Shown here in pieces: positions 23,831 to 37,962 of a DNA stretch of 64,000 nt. Made by a program: the position numbers and the translations under genes. The stretch comes from Flavobacteriales bacterium. GTDB taxonomy: Bacteria; Bacteroidota; Bacteroidia; CAIKAF01. Position 1 is the stretch's first letter, and every line of letters starts with the position of its first letter. The notes beneath the pieces are model-generated. The model was not told the DNA's origin. It did not search any database and was given only the letters and a program-made list of their open reading frames with translations. The DNA lies in NCBI GenBank assembly GCA_022402535.1, contig JAKRSD010000023.1, forward strand, positions 30,741 through 94,740, given 5' to 3'.

Positions 23831-23866
23831 GAAAAGGCTGCCCAATCGGGTGGCCTTTTTTTGTGG
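23831..23866 (+). terminator. Rho-independent terminator (AGGCUGCCC-AAUC-GGGUGGCCU plus U-run), copy 1 of 3
   Basis: 9-bp stem containing two G-U wobble pairs, formable only in plus-strand RNA, followed by TTTTTTT. Directly after the hppA stop. Confidence 0.7.
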
Positions 23867-23999
23867 TTTTATTACGCGAAAAATCTGTAATTCATAGTAT
23901 TCCTATGGTTGTTTTTTCACAAACCATTTTCTGTACCATGCAATAAAAAATTTGCATACGTGAAATGTTTTTTTTTTTTTGTAAAAACATTAATGTCAT

Positions 24000-24230
24000 A
24001 TGAAAAAATTAATCATTATTTCCTTTACGGCTTTATTATCCTTATTCTCATTTCTATCTCCGATAAAATTAAATGCCGTACCCGGTGGTGCATGGACTTA
24101 TAATGTGATAGCCATAGACGGTTGCTACAAAAAATTTGCCTGCACCAAACCGGTAGCTCATCCCAACTGCGTTAAGGGACATGAAACAGGATGGGTTTGT
24201 ACCTGCGAACCGTGGAATTGTAACAAATAA
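24000..24230 (+). CDS. Small secreted cysteine-rich peptide (76-aa precursor; 6 Cys in about 50-aa mature region)
   Basis: Hydrophobic signal peptide (MKKLIIISFTALLSLFSFLSPIKLNA), then C-x5-C-x8-C-x9-C-x-C-x4-C. Preceded by a T13 homopolymer tract at 23967..23979. Confidence 0.5.
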   Translation: MKKLIIISFTALLSLFSFLSPIKLNAVPGGAWTYNVIAIDGCYKKFACTKPVAHPNCVKGHETGWVCTCEPWNCNK

Positions 24231-24254
24231 TATCTTTATCTAAAGCAATATCTT

Positions 24255-25391
24255 ATGAAAACAATCAAATGGGTTATACCCTCATTTTTGCTGCTTACTT
24301 TTGCCTGTACGCCTGAAAAAAAACATTCCACAGTAAAAGCCTATTTAAATCACCTTTCTACTGAAGATAAAAAGTTATCCATACAGGTGGTAAAAAATGA
24401 TCCTTTACCCTCATTTTCGCCTCAAACCGGCATGTATGTTCAAATGAGCAAAACGGCTCCTGGCAGCCTTGATTTTTACAATGGAGATGATTTTTCAGTC
24501 AAGAAGTTTGACTTATTAACCGGAAGAGAGTTGAATTACATTTCATTTTCGTTACAGGAAACCACCAAACAAAAATCAGGGTATTGCTTTAAGTCTGACG
24601 ACCAAACCTACATATGGCACACGGGCGAAAATAAGTTGTATCTTTTTAATCAGACAGGAGCCTTAATAAAAACGGAAACGCTTACGCTAAGCTTAAACGG
24701 TGAATCCTATTTTTTATCAGCATCTGCCAATTCCTCGGCACAATTTGATGCCCTTTCAAACACCGTAATTTTGCCGGTATATCCAACGGAAGGAGCTGAT
24801 GGTAAAACACTGTATGAAGTGCCCAGATTTGTGTCGTACAACCTCACGAACGGGAAAACCCAATTCATACCGATTAAGTTACCGAAAGAATACTCAACGG
24901 GTAAAACTTATGGCATGCTGGATGTTCCATACACGGCAATGGATAATGGCAGTTTTTATGCTATATTCCCCTTAGTGGCTACGGTATTTGAATATAACAT
25001 TGCTTCGGGTCAGTTAAATTCCGTTCCACTTTCATTACCTGTTTCACTTGCGTATCCATCAGCCGTTAAAGAAGGACGAGATTTTATGGATCAAAGTGAA
25101 AACGAATACCGCACTAACCGCATTACCGGATTTGCCGTTAATCAGGGTAAAATATACATTCAACAGACCGAAGGCTGGGACGAAACATTGGAGTCCAAAT
25201 TATTTACGGAAAACACCGTATTGCATGCTTTCAGCAGAAACGGCACATACCTCGGCGGAGGGCAATTCCCCGAAGATGTATTTGGCAGTCTGGGTGTTTT
25301 TTATCTGAAATACACCCAAAACAATGAATTGTATTTCACTTCGTTCGATAGCAAGAATTCTAAACGACTGATTGCGATAAAGACCAAATAA
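24255..25391 (+). CDS. Hypothetical lipoprotein (378 aa; beta-rich, possibly beta-propeller-like)
   Basis: Lipoprotein signal (MKTIKWVIPSFLLLTFAC). No catalytic motifs recognised. Followed by terminator copy 2. Confidence 0.6.
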   Translation: MKTIKWVIPSFLLLTFACTPEKKHSTVKAYLNHLSTEDKKLSIQVVKNDPLPSFSPQTGMYVQMSKTAPGSLDFYNGDDFSVKKFDLLTGRELNYISFSLQETTKQKSGYCFKSDDQTYIWHTGENKLYLFNQTGALIKTETLTLSLNGESYFLSASANSSAQFDALSNTVILPVYPTEGADGKTLYEVPRFVSYNLTNGKTQFIPIKLPKEYSTGKTYGMLDVPYTAMDNGSFYAIFPLVATVFEYNIASGQLNSVPLSLPVSLAYPSAVKEGRDFMDQSENEYRTNRITGFAVNQGKIYIQQTEGWDETLESKLFTENTVLHAFSRNGTYLGGGQFPEDVFGSLGVFYLKYTQNNELYFTSFDSKNSKRLIAIKTK

Positions 25392-25449: not shown

Positions 25450-25486
25450 TGTAAAAGGCTGCCAAAACGGGTGGCCTTTTTGTTTT
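25450..25486 (+). terminator. Rho-independent terminator, copy 2 of 3 (variant loop)
   Basis: AAAAGGCTGCCAAAACGGGTGGCCTTTTTGTTTTTT. Same stem as 23831..23866. Confidence 0.65.
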
Positions 25487-25597
25487 TTACATGACTAATA
25501 CTATCAAATATTTGACATTTTCCAGAGTTACAGACTGCTCGAAATCTATATTTAAAAATCGTAAATTCGCAGAAGTTTAATGAACTGAAACATCATT

Positions 25598-25747
25598 ATG
25601 AATAACACTGAAATAAAAATAGAGCGAAGGAATAAAATCGTTGAAGGGCTGAAAATTGCCTATAAAAGGCTGATTGAGGAAAAACGAAAAAACAACAGAA
25701 TGATAGTCATCAGCAGAAATGGAGAAATAATCGAGATTAAACCTTAA
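25598..25747 (+). CDS. Small ORF (49 aa, MNNTEIKIERRNKIVEGLKIAYKRLIEEKRKNNRMIVISRNGEIIEIKP), below the ORF-track length cutoff
   Basis: ATG..TAA ORF read directly from the sequence. Flanked upstream and downstream by copies of the terminator hairpin, with the downstream copy immediately after its stop. Confidence 0.35.
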   Translation: MNNTEIKIERRNKIVEGLKIAYKRLIEEKRKNNRMIVISRNGEIIEIKP

Positions 25748-25761
25748 TACAAGTTTATTAA

Positions 25762-25798
25762 TAGAAAAGGCTGCCCAATCGGGTGGCCTTTTTGTTTT
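25762..25798 (+). terminator. Rho-independent terminator, copy 3 of 3
   Basis: AAAAGGCTGCCCAATCGGGTGGCCTTTTTGTTTTT, identical stem-loop to copy 1. Confidence 0.65.
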
Positions 25799-25803
25799 TA
25801 GTA

Positions 25804-27697: not shown

Positions 27698-27887
27698 CCT
27701 GCCTATCCCCTATTGCCTATTCCCTTTTGCCTATTGCCTATTCCCTTTTGCCTATTCCCTTTTGCCTATTGCCTATTCCCTATTGCCTATTCCCTTTTGC
27801 CTATTCCCTTTTGCCTATTGCCTATTGCCTATTCCCTTTTGCCTATTGCCTATTGCCTATTCCCCATTGCCTTCCCCTATTGCCTAT
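27698..27887 (+). repeat. Tandem heptamer array of about 27 units alternating TGCCTAT and TCCCTTT
   Basis: Direct reading: TGCCTATTCCCTTTTGCCTATTGCCTATTCCCTTT... for about 190 bp. The ORF-track proteins MPIPFCLLPIPF... are translations of this repeat. Confidence 0.9.
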
Positions 27888-31848: not shown

Positions 31849-32667
31849 ATGCTAGTTTATAAAATAAGGGAGTTTGGGAAAAAATATGAAGATGCTTCAA
31901 CATCTGATGATACTTTATTCAAACAAATACTTTTTTCCGCAAATCCAAATAGTTTCGATGACAAACATGACAGATTCATCTTACCAGAAATCCCGAAGCT
32001 TGATAGTGAGGAGGAAATAGATATAATTTCAACCCAAATAACTGAAAAACATATTGGTTATAAAAATTTAAAGTCTTTTTTTGAGAATAAAAAAAAAATA
32101 AAGGAAAAATTAAGAGTCAGAGATATCTTTATAGATGAATTAAAATATTCAATTCGTCAAGAAAACAAGAACTATGGTATATGTTCATTTACAAAAAATT
32201 GGAATCAACTTAAAAATTGGATTGAATATGGAAATTCCAATAATGGATTTTCGATAGGATTTGAAACAGATGATTTAATAAAATTAGATTTATTTAGCTA
32301 TGCTGCTGATGTTGTATACTCTAATGAATATCCCCAAATACCACTATTAGATTATTTCCCATCTGATTCATCAAACCCCTTGGATTGGTTTACAAACGTT
32401 TTTAGCAAAACTTTTTTCATCAAATCTATTGACTGGAAACATGAAAACGAATGGAGAATTGTAAAATCATTTGTAGATAACCCTTTTAGGATTGAAAGAA
32501 AATTTAAATTCCCAGCAGGAATAATAAAAGAGATTGTTTTAGGATTTGAAACAAATTCAAAAAATACTGAAAAAGTTGTTTCATTTTTTTCGGGTAGTAG
32601 TATTCCTATATATAAAACTTATCTTCCAGAAGATAGTTATGAACTTAAAAGAATTAAAATAAACTGA
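31849..32667 (+). CDS. DUF2971-like hypothetical protein (AT-rich island)
   Basis: CSFTKNWNQLKNWIEYGNSNNGFSIGFE resembles the DUF2971 core (S.F...W..YA..H.G.c.eF). Markedly AT-rich codon usage compared with flanking genes. Confidence 0.45.
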   Translation: MLVYKIREFGKKYEDASTSDDTLFKQILFSANPNSFDDKHDRFILPEIPKLDSEEEIDIISTQITEKHIGYKNLKSFFENKKKIKEKLRVRDIFIDELKYSIRQENKNYGICSFTKNWNQLKNWIEYGNSNNGFSIGFETDDLIKLDLFSYAADVVYSNEYPQIPLLDYFPSDSSNPLDWFTNVFSKTFFIKSIDWKHENEWRIVKSFVDNPFRIERKFKFPAGIIKEIVLGFETNSKNTEKVVSFFSGSSIPIYKTYLPEDSYELKRIKIN

Positions 32668-34418: not shown

Positions 34419-34946
34419 TCATTTCACATTACTCACCGCCGCATTCAGCTTATCTGCAAGCTCCTGAGCTTTCTGAAAATCATCGTATTTAAACGTAAAA
34501 ACCACGTAAGTCCTGTTATTATCCTCCATAAGCTCTCCTCTATCCGTCAATATTTTGTAATTAATATGACTGTCATTGCCCGTCCACTTTAAATACGCTT
34601 CTCCATCTGAATAATTTTTAACTACCTTAAAATTTGGCGCTACAGGTTTAGATTTATCTAAGGGTATCTGAATCATTTCGTATTCCGTAACCTGATTATT
34701 ATATTGATTTACGCGGTACGCATATACCAAAAATTCTTTTTTGACTTTATCTTCATAATATCCGATTTTACAACCATATTGCCTTACGGTATACCAAATA
34801 CCATTGGCAGGAATGTAATAATTATATTTAGGTTTAGCCACCGGAGCGGGCTTTTCCACTTCCTCCTGAACAGGTTGTTCAAACAGTTGTGCTCTTAATC
34901 CGCCTAGCGTAAAGAGCGCGATTAACAATAAACCGATTTTTTTCAT
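34419..34946 (-). CDS. Secreted small protein, paralog family A (175 aa)
   Basis: Signal peptide (MKKIGLLLIALFTLGGLRAQ). Shares a FLVYAYRV...IQIPL..KPVAP core and a C-terminal A.ELA.KLNA helix with 35650..36120 and 34982..35653. Confidence 0.6.
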   Translation of the reverse strand: MKKIGLLLIALFTLGGLRAQLFEQPVQEEVEKPAPVAKPKYNYYIPANGIWYTVRQYGCKIGYYEDKVKKEFLVYAYRVNQYNNQVTEYEMIQIPLDKSKPVAPNFKVVKNYSDGEAYLKWTGNDSHINYKILTDRGELMEDNNRTYVVFTFKYDDFQKAQELADKLNAAVSNVK

Positions 34947-34981
34947 GGTAAAATTTGACTATGTTTTATAAATTTTAGGCA

Positions 34982-35653
34982 CTATTTGGTCAATCCGAGT
35001 CGCATATTCAATTCGTTTGCAAGCCATTTTGCCGCATCCGGTTGAAGCGGAAGACTTACCAGCTCTTTAAAATATCCATTGGTGCTGCTTATGTTGTCAT
35101 AGTATTTTTTTGTTCTGCTCTCTTCAACCCAATTTTTATCATAGGCTTTCCAGGGCATCTCACTCAAATCAGCTTTGGGGATAACATTTACTTGAAAAAC
35201 TTTACCGCATTTGGTATGGTAGGGATCCGTATATATGTTTGCATACTCTTTTTCCCAGGGTTTGCCGTGATGGTAATACTCTTTCGTGATGAATTTAGGA
35301 ATGACACCGGAGCGTTTACAATCTTCAAAATCATCAGCAAACAGAAGGTATAATGTTAAATATTCAGGATCACCCATTTCATTTGATGCGGTAATTTTAT
35401 ATCGCACTACATATAACGAACAGGCTTTCGTTTTCTCATCCCACTTGTAATACAGCACATCAGCGTTTTCTTCGAAAAATTTTGATAAAAGCGCGCCTTT
35501 CCAATCGGTTAACTGCACAGCACCTGCAGGAATTTCCACTCCGTCAAAATTTGTTATAGCTTGTTTTGTTTTCGTTGGCACAAAATTTTGGCCGCTTACA
35601 TATACTGAAATCAAACTGAGTATGACGAAAGTAATTGCTTTATACCTTTTCAT
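34982..35653 (-). CDS. Secreted small protein, paralog family A (223 aa)
   Basis: Signal peptide (MKRYKAITFVILSLISVYVSGQ). LYVVRYKI core and an AKWLANELNMRLG C-terminus related to the two neighbours. Confidence 0.6.
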   Translation of the reverse strand: MKRYKAITFVILSLISVYVSGQNFVPTKTKQAITNFDGVEIPAGAVQLTDWKGALLSKFFEENADVLYYKWDEKTKACSLYVVRYKITASNEMGDPEYLTLYLLFADDFEDCKRSGVIPKFITKEYYHHGKPWEKEYANIYTDPYHTKCGKVFQVNVIPKADLSEMPWKAYDKNWVEESRTKKYYDNISSTNGYFKELVSLPLQPDAAKWLANELNMRLGLTK

Positions 35654-36120
35654 TTTTTGAATTTTGCATTAAGTTCATTTTTTAACCACTCGGCTTTTTC
35701 ATGCGAGCTGATGATTACATCCAAATCGCTTGAATTGTCACATTCCAGTGCGGTAGCCTCTTTATCTGCTTCACACTCCACGATGAAGTCATTTTCCTTT
35801 GCATCGGTCCATTGTACCCGTGATCCGTCAGACTCTTTAAGTGCCGTAAATGCAGGCGCCAGCGGTTTGATTTTGACCACCGGAAGGGTAATTATTTCCG
35901 CTTCCTGAAATGTGTTGTCTTCGTCATCATAGCGAACCAGATAAATCTTGGCTTCTGCTTTGGTGTTGTCGAAATAGTAAAATGCCTTTTCCCACTGATC
36001 TATTCCCTGTCCAAGCTCCACATGGCCGGCAGGAATGGTAAAGGTTTTGAATTTAAGCTCTTGCGCACGGGTAATCAGTGCAAATAACAAGGCTGGAATA
36101 ATTAAAACTATTTTTTTCAT
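35650..36120 (-). CDS. Secreted small protein, paralog family A (156 aa)
   Basis: Trimmed to the MKKIVLIIPALLFALITRAQ signal peptide. IYLVRYDD...ITLPVVKIKPLAPAF core and an AEWLKNELNAKFKK C-terminus. Confidence 0.6.
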   Translation of the reverse strand: MKKIVLIIPALLFALITRAQELKFKTFTIPAGHVELGQGIDQWEKAFYYFDNTKAEAKIYLVRYDDEDNTFQEAEIITLPVVKIKPLAPAFTALKESDGSRVQWTDAKENDFIVECEADKEATALECDNSSDLDVIISSHEKAEWLKNELNAKFKK

Positions 36121-36166
36121 TTTTTTTAATTTTATAGAGTAATACAGAGTATTGCTATTATTCAAA

Positions 36167-36736
36167 CTATTTGATTCCAAACACTTCTTTAAACTTATTT
36201 TCAGCAAACTGAATCCAAATATCATCGCCAATACCTTTATCAGAATACCAGATGAACCTTTTTGGAGTAAACGAATCTATTACACTATAATCTGTTTTAC
36301 CCCCGTTTACCATTTCCTTCTTAGTCTCGGAAATTCCATCTTTCCAATAGTTCAGCATGAATCCATCCTCCGGCAGCTCCACTTTGATGAAGGACCGCTT
36401 ACCCGGATAATACTATTCTAAACGGGTGCTTTTGAAACGCTCACTTTTAGCCAAAGCATCCGAAATTTTAATTTCATAACCGCTACCCAGTTCAGCAGAG
36501 TTCATTATAAAAAATACATGATTATTTGCCGCATCTTTCCAATACCACAATGAATTTTTATGGGGCGTATTGGAAAAACTGGAAATTCCCATTAATTCGC
36601 CTGTTGCATATTTAGCGCCCTCTGCGTTGTGCGGTATGATTAATTTGCCGTATTTGTATATCGGCGTCTGGGCAATTGCTGTTACACAAACACTCAGGGT
36701 TAGTAGTATTAAAATAAGCGTTTGTCTGTTTTTCAT
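36167..36736 (-). pseudogene. Nonsense-interrupted paralog of 36849..37412 (family B): in-frame TAG at complement of 36413..36415
   Basis: ORF 36413..36736 (signal peptide plus N-terminal half) and ORF 36167..36382 (C-terminal half) are in the same frame. The intervening read-through gives FKSTRLE*YYPGKRSFIKVELPEDGFML, against FKSTKIEIDKYSKAIEVILPENGFIL in the intact paralog. Confidence 0.7.
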
Positions 36737-36848
36737 AAAATAGTTGATGTTATGTTTGGTAAAAAACCGATTCCTGAATAGAATCCTTTACAATAGCCGA
36801 AATAAAATTCTTTCCTAAAATGAATTGACAGCGGAATGCTTAGAATTT

Positions 36849-37412
36849 CTAATTCAACCCAAAAACCGCTTTTACCTTTTTCTCAACAAACTGAAGCCAT
36901 TCCATTTCTTTTCCCTCTTTGTATTCCGTATTCCAGTAAAATTTATTGGGAGTAGAGGTACCTCGATGATTCAGGCCATAATCTATAAAGTTAATTTTGC
37001 TTTGCGCTTCCGAATATCCTGACTCATAAAATTGGGTGAGAATGAATCCATTTTCTGGTAAGATAACTTCAATGGCTTTTGAATATTTATCAATTTCAAT
37101 TTTAGTGGATTTAAATGGAGCACTTTTTGCCAATGCGTCTGAAATTTTTGCCTGATATGCGCTTCCGTTAGCTGAACTTAAAACACAAAATATATGATTT
37201 CCCGAAGCATCTTTCCAATACCAGAATGTGTTTCTCAAAGGCTTGTTTTCGTCGCTCGAAAGACCCAACAATTTACCATTGGCATCTCGCGGCCCTTCGG
37301 CATTATGTGGTATAGTCAGTTGCCCTTTCTGGAAAATGGGTGTTTGCGCTAAAACTAATTTACCTGTAAATAAAGTAAAACAGGAAACAGCTATAATCAT
37401 TAGTTTATTCAT
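36849..37412 (-). CDS. Secreted small protein, paralog family B (187 aa)
   Basis: Signal peptide (MNKLMIIAVSCFTLFTGKLVLAQ). QTPI..G.L.IPHNAEG...WYWKDA..NH.F core shared with 36413..36736. Confidence 0.6.
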   Translation of the reverse strand: MNKLMIIAVSCFTLFTGKLVLAQTPIFQKGQLTIPHNAEGPRDANGKLLGLSSDENKPLRNTFWYWKDASGNHIFCVLSSANGSAYQAKISDALAKSAPFKSTKIEIDKYSKAIEVILPENGFILTQFYESGYSEAQSKINFIDYGLNHRGTSTPNKFYWNTEYKEGKEMEWLQFVEKKVKAVFGLN

Positions 37413-37548
37413 GATAATGTGGATTTTTTACATTGATTAATCAATCGGTTGACTAACTTTTTTATTATGTTTATATATTATGAAAAATACAATTTTTATA
37501 AGAGCAGGAATTAACTATTAACCCCCGCTCTTTAGGTATTAACACAGT

Positions 37549-37827
37549 TTACGGTAAATTAATTTCAGGTTCGATTTGAAGAAATGATCCCATGATTATT
37601 TGTTTTCCAATGCATTGAGTTTGGAAAGTAAGACCTGCTTCGCGGTTTTGAGAAACAGAATTCCCAGCGTTTATTAATCCAGAGGCGACAATCTCTTTTC
37701 CATTTAAATATCTACAATTTAACGTCTTGAATTTGTCGTTTTTTATTGGAAAAGCTACTATCTGTGCCTTCAGGGTGATGCACAAACCTAATGCTGGAAG
37801 TAGAGTAATTATAATAACTCTTTTCAT
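37549..37827 (-). CDS. Small secreted hypothetical protein (92 aa)
   Basis: ORF trimmed to MKRVIIITLLPALGLCITLKAQ signal peptide. AT-rich island. Confidence 0.4.
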   Translation of the reverse strand: MKRVIIITLLPALGLCITLKAQIVAFPIKNDKFKTLNCRYLNGKEIVASGLINAGNSVSQNREAGLTFQTQCIGKQIIMGSFLQIEPEINLP

Positions 37828-37962
37828 GGTTATATTGAAATGACAATGCAAACTTACATTTTGAAAAAAAGGATTAGGATTGTGTTTGCATGAACAGAAG
37901 AGTTTATTTCACGAAAAGAGCAAAAATCTTCTTAAACAATTAAATCTGGTTTTATTAAATTA

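Follow-up and report, generated by a model that had tools for sequence, protein, structure and literature searches.

The 64,000-nucleotide (nt) stretch of a Flavobacteriales genome analyzed here (contig JAKRSD010000023.1, positions 30,741 to 94,740, hereafter the window) carries a gene for a six-cysteine mini-protein with a signal peptide, followed by a lipoprotein gene and preceded by a run of 13 thymines, T13. Comparison with related loci established that the small gene is real, that the two genes form a conserved module, that a repeat lies at the same position of the promoter across lineages, and that the length of this repeat varies among near-identical strains. Because repeat length changes between such strains, expression of the pair probably alternates stochastically between on and off, and we favor, with moderate confidence, the reading that it constitutes a phase-variable two-gene envelope operon under the control of a promoter repeat. 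The features of the locus are the following.

23831..23867, plus strand: intrinsic terminator of the upstream H+-pyrophosphatase gene (terminator scan), upstream boundary of the module and first copy of a hairpin
23951..23954, plus strand: putative -33 element, TTTG, after an A6 tract, proposed from the sequence and the Bacteroidota sigma-A consensus (PMC9723704)
23968..23980, plus strand: T13 simple-sequence repeat, hypervariable (sequence and allele comparison)
23974..23981, plus strand: -7-like box TTTTTTTG, made of the 3′ end of the T tract and G23981 (sequence)
24000..24077, plus strand: predicted Sec-type signal peptide of the mini-protein, 26 amino acids, with an MKK n-region, a hydrophobic core and a KLNA c-region preceding the putative cleavage site
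24078..24230, plus strand: mature six-cysteine mini-protein of approximately 50 amino acids and its stop codon (invariant residues, substitution rates, AlphaFold2)
24255..25391, plus strand: partner lipoprotein, 378 amino acids, lipobox Cys18 (full-length homologues with a lipobox; sub-threshold DUF4221 match)
25453..25487, plus strand: intrinsic terminator closing the two-gene unit (terminator scan), second copy of the hairpin

An earlier note on this DNA had described the small open reading frame (ORF) at 24000..24230 on the plus strand, its 76 codons and the pattern C-x5-C-x8-C-x9-C-x-C-x4-C, all of which proved exact on re-reading, as did the start of the 378-codon lipoprotein ORF 24 nt past the stop codon of the small gene. 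It was right about the length of the T tract, but its coordinates, 23967..23979, were one base off. The product of the small gene is MKKLIIISFTALLSLFSFLSPIKLNA, followed by VPGG and the rest of the 76-residue protein after the predicted signal cleavage site. Co-transcription of the two genes, also proposed there, gained support from the conserved linkage of the pair and from the terminator scan, which found no terminator between the mini-protein and lipoprotein genes and one after the pair (25453..25480 plus a T run; previously placed at 25450). The NCBI annotation of the Flavobacteriales metagenome-assembled genome (MAG) calls the small gene product "hypothetical" (MCG9911636.1) and the lipoprotein "DUF4221 domain-containing" (MCG9911637.1).

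Taken by itself, a T13 tract is not beyond chance in the AT-rich window (43% G+C), as at least one occurred in 20 of 100 dinucleotide shuffles. Comparison alone lends it significance: five of the seven simple-sequence repeats found in 108 kb (the window and the unique related loci) lie directly upstream of members of this gene family. The alleles recovered, by lineage, were as follows.

Window lineage: T13 (window), T10 (L001), T14 (L002) and T9-A-TTTG (L030); the peptides of L001 and L002 are identical
P0011 lineage: T10 (two contigs) and T15 (three contigs), with 0 to 3 differences in 900 coding nt
P0005 and P0012: T20 (L006) and T21 (L009), respectively
P0004/P0015 lineage: (CTTT)3, (CTTT)5, (CTTT)6, at least (CTTT)7 and an interrupted allele, in about 20 contigs; at most 5 differences in 1,400 nt were measured for the L003-L023 contigs
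P0003: (ATTC)5 (L010), single contig
P0006: imperfect (ATTT/ATTTT)4 (L029), single contig

The T tract is thus length-variable within the window lineage (T10, T13, T14), and T10/T15, T20, T21 or tracts of other units stand in the same place elsewhere, which substantially strengthened the earlier suggestion of a phase-variable spacer. A promoter repeat whose number varies among otherwise near-identical contigs, as expected of a contingency locus, was found in three lineages. Sequencing runs carrying the locus are SRR23375770, SRR30765736, SRR31228762, SRR31228766, SRR19361207 and SRR33233605 for (CTTT)n, SRR15359035, SRR32875427, SRR32875428 and SRR32943635 for T10/T15, and SRR29243433, JGI 3300010356 and JGI 3300044940 for the window lineage. 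Almost every lineage has a repeat at this point of the promoter. The position of the repeat is kept among lineages whose proteins share approximately 40% identity (35 to 44%), whereas its unit differs (T, CTTT, ATTC or ATTT), and neutral decay does not predict a conserved position with a changing unit. The ends of the contigs point the same way, many assemblies being interrupted within the repeat. Logan assemblies use k = 31; in ten Logan contigs, exactly 30 nt precede the base that follows the repeat, L006 likewise opens 30 nt ahead of the G closing T20, and other contigs start where the regular and interrupted alleles diverge. Such starts, seen in many samples, are suggestive, though not proof, of a branch in the de Bruijn assembly graph caused by mixed repeat lengths in one sample, which clonal switching or coexisting strains could produce alike.

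Bacteroidota sigma-A promoters comprise a TTG or TTTG element at -33 and a -7 box, TAnnTTTG, at -12 to -5, and the median 5′ untranslated region in Flavobacterium is 24 nt (PMC9723704). TAnnTTTG was enriched 2.2-fold in the intergenic DNA of the window, with a distance from its G to the start codon of mostly 4 to 28 nt. The corresponding distance to the ATG at the repeat loci was 18 nt in the window lineage and L029, 19 nt in L030, and 27 nt in L006, L009 and L024. As these distances match the -7 geometry, the terminal TTTG of the repeat would occupy the -7 position and the body of the repeat would fill the spacer. An A tract followed by TTTG, resembling the putative -33 element, also precedes the repeat in L030 and L024. 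In L010, (ATTC)5 ends 3 nt before a perfect -7 box, TACATTTG (TAcaTTTG), the G of which is 26 nt from the ATG. Measured from the A tract and TTTG, the spacer is 19 nt long in the window (T13), 17 nt in L001, 21 nt in L002, and 19 nt in L030, where T9-A-T3 has the same total length as the window tract. No RNA element was detected in the leader by Rfam or RNA folding (z-score -0.96), and no inverted repeats or recombinase were found at the locus.

The two genes occur together well beyond the window. A mini-protein gene was followed by a homologue of the lipoprotein gene after 17 to 62 nt in eight lineages (the window, L001, L030, L003, L006, L007, L009 and L029), and the pair was intact at every locus with known downstream DNA. 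The flanking genes differ: the window pair lies downstream of an H+-pyrophosphatase gene with its own terminator (Pfam H_PPase, E = 6e-266) and upstream of a convergent epimerase gene and prsW, and the neighbors are genes for a SusC-like receptor and a type IX secretion system (T9SS) protein in L003, SecDF in L006 and L009, and an ATP-binding cassette (ABC) transporter and a DUF3276 protein in L007. Linkage is therefore to the partner gene and not to the neighborhood, and on this comparative evidence the two genes are a conserved module. One contig of the P0004 lineage, JACSSC010000058.1 (L011/L003), is labeled Candidatus Competibacteraceae bacterium; it also encodes a SusC-like TonB receptor with CarboxypepD_reg and a protein with Por_Secre_tail (T9SS), and given these Bacteroidota hallmarks the gammaproteobacterial label is probably a binning error.

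The mini-protein family is very small. When 5.8 billion clusters were searched by word index, P0001 (89% identity) was the sole relative retrieved; exhaustive HMMER screening of 1.84 billion representatives yielded four more small homologues, of 68 to 86 amino acids (E = 1e-9 to 2e-8), and a profile search brought the family to seven 90%-identity clusters among 5.8 billion. The exhaustive search also returned four giant proteins, P0007 to P0010, which are repeat proteins with immunoglobulin (Ig) and fn3 domains matching through low-information chance motifs, and they were discarded. A further copy, initiated by GTG, was found in L030/L031 from genomic context; the L030 gene (1239..1466) with this start had been passed over by two gene callers (JGI and Logan). 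Scanning metagenome contigs with the peptide alignment yielded one locus, tblastn against plasmid and phage sequences gave no match to the locus, and no paralogue of either gene was present in the window. Scans of both proteins against Pfam, NCBIfam, PHROGs and PADLOC returned nothing besides the sub-threshold DUF4221 match, and the eight peptides had no Pfam match at E ≤ 1 except one chance LPAM_1 match; NVEALA (PF14055) was unmatched. NVEALA small proteins are neighbors of beta-propeller lipoproteins in Bacteroides. No literature on DUF4221 or NVEALA was found.

Alignment of eight members identified 12 invariant residues (T33, C42, Y43, C48, C57, G60, T63, C67, C69, P71, W72 and C74), and the six-cysteine pattern was kept in every homologue, which bore out the initial view of the ORF as a real gene for a Sec-type secreted mini-protein. 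A chance origin of the ORF, within an extended leader preceding the lipoprotein gene, is highly improbable. The omission of the GTG-initiated copy by both callers would fit such an origin, as would the ratio of nonsynonymous to synonymous substitution rates (dN/dS) relative to L001, which at 0.73 from 11 changes is uninformative. However, the frame is open, with all six cysteines, down to the 35 to 44% identity of the distant homologues, and relative to the L030 protein (52 of 75 residues identical, 69%) dN/dS was 0.30 at a dS of 0.59 (20 synonymous and 27 nonsynonymous changes), or 0.37 for the mature part alone. The mature part also gave a confident AlphaFold2 model, with a block-mean predicted local distance difference test score (pLDDT) of 86 to 93 over residues 31 to 70 and a beta-hairpin (31 to 40/43 to 52) when eight sequences were used; with a two-sequence alignment, the pLDDT was 45. 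By these comparisons, ORF 24000..24230 is a real gene of a very rare family.

By inspection, all eight members have the layout of an export signal, i.e., MKK at the start, 12 to 16 hydrophobic residues and an end of small residues (LNA, AKA, TYA, AFA or SLA), and are thus predicted substrates of the Sec machinery and signal peptidase I. The earlier note had raised the alternative of a double-glycine leader, under which the mini-protein would be the precursor of a class II bacteriocin or of a ribosomally synthesized and posttranslationally modified peptide, cut by a C39 peptidase-ABC exporter. The window protein does have a GG pair, at residues 29 and 30, and so do P0001 and L030, which are closest to it. 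However, six other family members (P0003, P0004, P0005, P0006, P0011 and P0012) lack it and homologues have QKCY, RKT, KPS, PKR or KKA instead; as GG is not conserved outside the window sub-lineage, such a leader was excluded. The core of the leader is moreover hydrophobic and Sec-type rather than amphipathic. No C39 ABC exporter was found in the 6-kb flanks of five lineages, to which the search was confined; the sole nearby ABC transporter, at L007, for which only ABC_membrane and ABC_tran are listed, is not conserved at the other loci, and no radical S-adenosylmethionine (SAM) enzyme or other maturase was found nearby. A double-glycine precursor is accordingly very unlikely.

The fold of the predicted mature peptide appears to be distinct from those of known cysteine-rich mini-proteins. 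The model had no structural neighbor in PDB or in BFVD (viral), and PDB sequence searches with single sequences and profiles gave chance matches only, such as a GGAWTYNV motif in Ig-like repeat proteins. The proposed comparison with knottin or defensin-like folds thus gave no support for either, because the model has no PDB match. The peptide resembles knottins, cysteine-stabilized alpha-beta (CS-alpha-beta) defensins and SCIFF peptides in having six cysteines in approximately 33 residues, a length of about 50 amino acids and a CxC element. It differs from knottins in that its loops (5, 8, 9, 1 and 4) are outside the consensus for loops 2 and 3, from CS-alpha-beta defensins in lacking the CxxxC and, in the model, the helix that defensins both need, and from SCIFF in having a Sec signal and no radical-SAM neighbor.

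The partner lipoproteins are 378 to 382 amino acids long, align over their full length at 32 to 35% identity and all have a lipobox. The PROSITE rule for the lipobox is [LIVMFSTAG]2-[LIVMFYSTAGCQ]-[AGS]-C after a signal peptide, and the sequences LTFA-C (LLTFA-C18 in the window), FLS-C, IMA-C, LIS-C, LIS-C and ITA-C conform to it, the Cys being invariant. The dN/dS of the window lipoprotein relative to L030 was 0.16. Scanning genome contigs with the lipoprotein alignment identified two MAG loci; no match was obtained when these contigs were scanned with a single lipoprotein or when metagenome contigs were scanned with the alignment. Residues 70 to 239 of the window lipoprotein matched Pfam DUF4221 (PF13970) with 22.1 bits and E = 1.3e-4, the gathering cutoff being 23.4. 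DUF4221-type lipoproteins of Bacteroidota are proteins that we take, from their Pfam clan, to be six-bladed beta-propellers. The partner is like them in being a Bacteroidota lipoprotein of about 380 amino acids, and NCBI uses the DUF4221 name for the window protein; it nevertheless belongs to a separate, much rarer family, defined by the linkage to the six-cysteine peptide. A PDB sequence search showed one blade-like segment with weak, chance-level similarity to WD40 repeats, and comparison of the lipoprotein profile with itself revealed weak internal repeats only (P about 0.01). The fold is probably beta-propeller-like. Among five lipoproteins, no His, Asp or Arg is invariant, and the only invariant Cys is that of the lipobox, which led us to assign the protein a binding or scaffold role and not an enzymatic one.

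The surface-export signal of Bacteroidota lipoproteins is C-X-K-(D/E)2-X, with two acidic residues at +3 to +6 (PMC5080379). Of the six sequences, only L007 (CTEETK) has two; the other five (CTPEKK, CQTETR, CNKKEA, CTKKES and CTQEKT) have one acidic residue following the lipobox Cys. A single acidic residue makes a periplasm-facing orientation more likely, in which case the lipoprotein and the Sec-exported peptide would share a compartment.

Two further explanations, one of the pair and one of the repeat, have to be weighed against a switched envelope operon. The earlier note had likened the peptide to secreted toxin, bacteriocin-like or signaling peptides, and such a role is a minority candidate. 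The mini-protein could be a toxin of bacteriocin-like or periplasm-acting type that is exported by Sec and leaves the cell through vesicles or lysis, with the lipoprotein as its cotranscribed immunity protein. It is small, disulfide-rich, secreted and fast-evolving: relative to L030 its gene is a local peak of divergence, with 76% nucleotide identity compared to about 90% for the pyrophosphatase and lipoprotein genes, a dN of 0.178 compared to 0.049 for the lipoprotein, and a dS of 0.59 compared to 0.30. Tight linkage to a lipoprotein of the same compartment and the varied genomic contexts of the module, as with mobile toxin-immunity pairs, also fit a toxin. Nevertheless, no conserved export or lysis function is found alongside, neither protein matches a bacteriocin or immunity family in PADLOC, PHROGs, Pfam or NCBIfam, and an immunity protein of 380 amino acids would be unusual for a 50-residue toxin. 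Furthermore, the lipoprotein occurs alone in L012 whereas the peptide is never alone where downstream DNA is known, and the family is extremely rare and devoid of paralogue arrays. We therefore regard a toxin-immunity pair as unlikely. About as improbable, in our estimation, is a reading of the repeat as nothing more than a hot spot of mutation or AT-rich filler in the promoter, with length variation that is neutral or in part an artifact of assembly and causes no switching. Such an origin would agree with the frequency of T13 in shuffles of the AT-rich window, with the imperfect assignment of the -7 box, and with the tendency of homopolymers to accumulate errors in Illumina data and to interrupt assemblies. 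Neutral decay, however, would erase a repeat that is instead found at the same promoter position, in different units, at 35 to 44% protein identity. Copy numbers of 3 to at least 7 of a tetranucleotide are not sequencing errors, the same alleles recur in independent samples, and just two other simple-sequence repeats occur in the remaining approximately 108 kb.

Several observations weigh against a phase-variable, periplasm-facing operon. With respect to the promoter, the -7 boxes of the poly-T and (CTTT)n alleles (TTTTTTTG and TTTCTTTG) lack the conserved TA; the P0004 lineage has its repeat at about 135 nt from the ATG instead of 18 to 27 nt; and the spacing model would place the commonest (CTTT)n alleles, (CTTT)5 and (CTTT)6, and T10 of the P0011 lineage in an "off" state (spacers of 27, 31 and 12 nt, respectively), which is possible. 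The length differences between samples could represent stable strain polymorphism and not reversible switching. Regarding the lipoprotein, the DUF4221 match is below threshold, and the other four of the five lipoproteins have no match at E ≤ 1; the CTEETK sequence of L007 could be a surface-export signal; and phase variation is less expected of a periplasm-facing than of a surface protein. Finally, L012 has the lipoprotein without a mini-protein gene, showing that the lipoprotein can stand alone. The L012 gene (3878..5050 of JBKBHS010000004.1, a Bacteroidia bacterium MAG, with tatA and purM upstream) encodes a protein approximately 90% identical to that of L009 from about residue 60 on and about 35% identical before, a mosaic breakpoint in the N terminus that indicates exchange of the 5′ part of the module.

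The mechanism that we propose for a phase-variable operon is as follows. The mini-protein would be exported by Sec, cut by signal peptidase I to approximately 50 residues, and stabilized by three disulfides. The lipoprotein, of about 380 residues, would be anchored in the outer membrane, probably on the periplasmic side, in a binding or scaffold role. Inherited as a unit, the two would most likely act as a complex in the cell envelope. A hypermutable repeat between the -33 TTG/TTTG and the -7 box would set transcription of the pair, and in the poly-T lineages the 3′ end of the tract would itself contribute the -7 TTTG. By altering the -33/-7 spacing, slipped-strand mispairing would cause stochastic switching or tuning of expression, so that the locus would qualify as a contingency, i.e., phase-variable, locus. 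One possible role would be to vary a component of the envelope when phages or predators exert pressure. More tentatively, one may picture environmental Bacteroidota in which a selected, repeatedly reinvented repeat in the -33/-7 spacer of a sigma-A promoter switches an undescribed envelope pair, a triple-disulfide mini-protein of new fold in complex with a propeller-like lipoprotein; the peptide, which evolves fast, would be the variable face of an arms race, e.g., in phage or predator recognition or blockade; we consider this extended version possible but doubtful.

Other features of the window deserve mention. The terminator hairpin AAGGCTGCCnnnnCGGGTGGCCTT is present three times in the 64 kb, all within 2 kb (23832 to 23866, 25453 to 25487 and 25765 to 25799), the pattern starting at 23834, 25455 and 25767 only. 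Copies 2 and 3 flank a 312-bp segment with a 49-codon ORF (25598..25747) that is missing in L030, where a single hairpin stands; it looks like a cassette insertion or a duplication at a terminator. Copies 1 and 2 likewise enclose the six-cysteine/lipoprotein pair. Another repeat array, of a different kind, lies 2.3 kb downstream of the locus: approximately 27 tandem heptamers (TGCCTAT/TCCCTAT) at 27700..27887 occupy the intergenic stretch between prsW on the minus strand and the next plus-strand gene. The only other homopolymer of at least 10 nt in the window is an A10 run (32089..32098) inside ORF 31849..32667, a possible frameshift-prone site. On the minus strand, 34419..37851 encodes a series of small proteins with signal peptides, unrelated to the six-cysteine pair and including at least two paralogues; ORFs 36413..36736 and 36849..37412 share the motif AQTPI[YF].[YK]G[KQ]L.IPHNAEG.

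Promoter repeats acting as contingency loci are a well-known class of mechanism; the protein pair proposed to be controlled here is undescribed. Haemophilus influenzae hifA/B carry (TA)n between -35 and -10, the vlp lipoprotein promoters of Mycoplasma hyorhinis carry poly-A, and opc and porA of Neisseria carry poly-C/G. A poly-T tract in the sabA promoter of Helicobacter pylori likewise mediates phase variation through a promoter repeat (PMC2715451). The present locus is like sabA-type loci in having, within or beside the core promoter of a gene for an envelope protein, a slippage-prone repeat whose number varies among otherwise identical strains, and stochastic on/off or graded expression would be expected here as well. 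It differs in that the host is an environmental member of the Bacteroidota with -33 TTTG/-7 TAnnTTTG promoters, and in that the repeat unit is replaced between lineages while its position is kept.

Invertible promoters are also known to control lipoprotein and S-layer genes in Bacteroides. The locus shares with them the phylum, an envelope lipoprotein operon and, presumably, heterogeneous expression in the population; there, however, a site-specific recombinase inverts the DNA, whereas here a repeat tract would take that role. Phase variation described in Bacteroidota consists of DNA inversion and affects capsule, polysaccharide-metabolism and restriction-modification genes (reviewed in PMC11868660), and no description of repeat-based switching in this phylum was found in the literature searched. 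If our reading is true, repeat slippage in the -33/-7 promoter would be a second mechanism of phase variation for Bacteroidota, known almost only for DNA inversion, and would operate in free-living, uncultured members and not in host-adapted pathogens. The locus is also a clean natural experiment: conservation of the position of the repeat while its unit changes argues for selection on mutability itself. With neither protein belonging to a curated family at threshold and the peptide having no structural neighbor, the pair would mark an unexplored function of the cell envelope.

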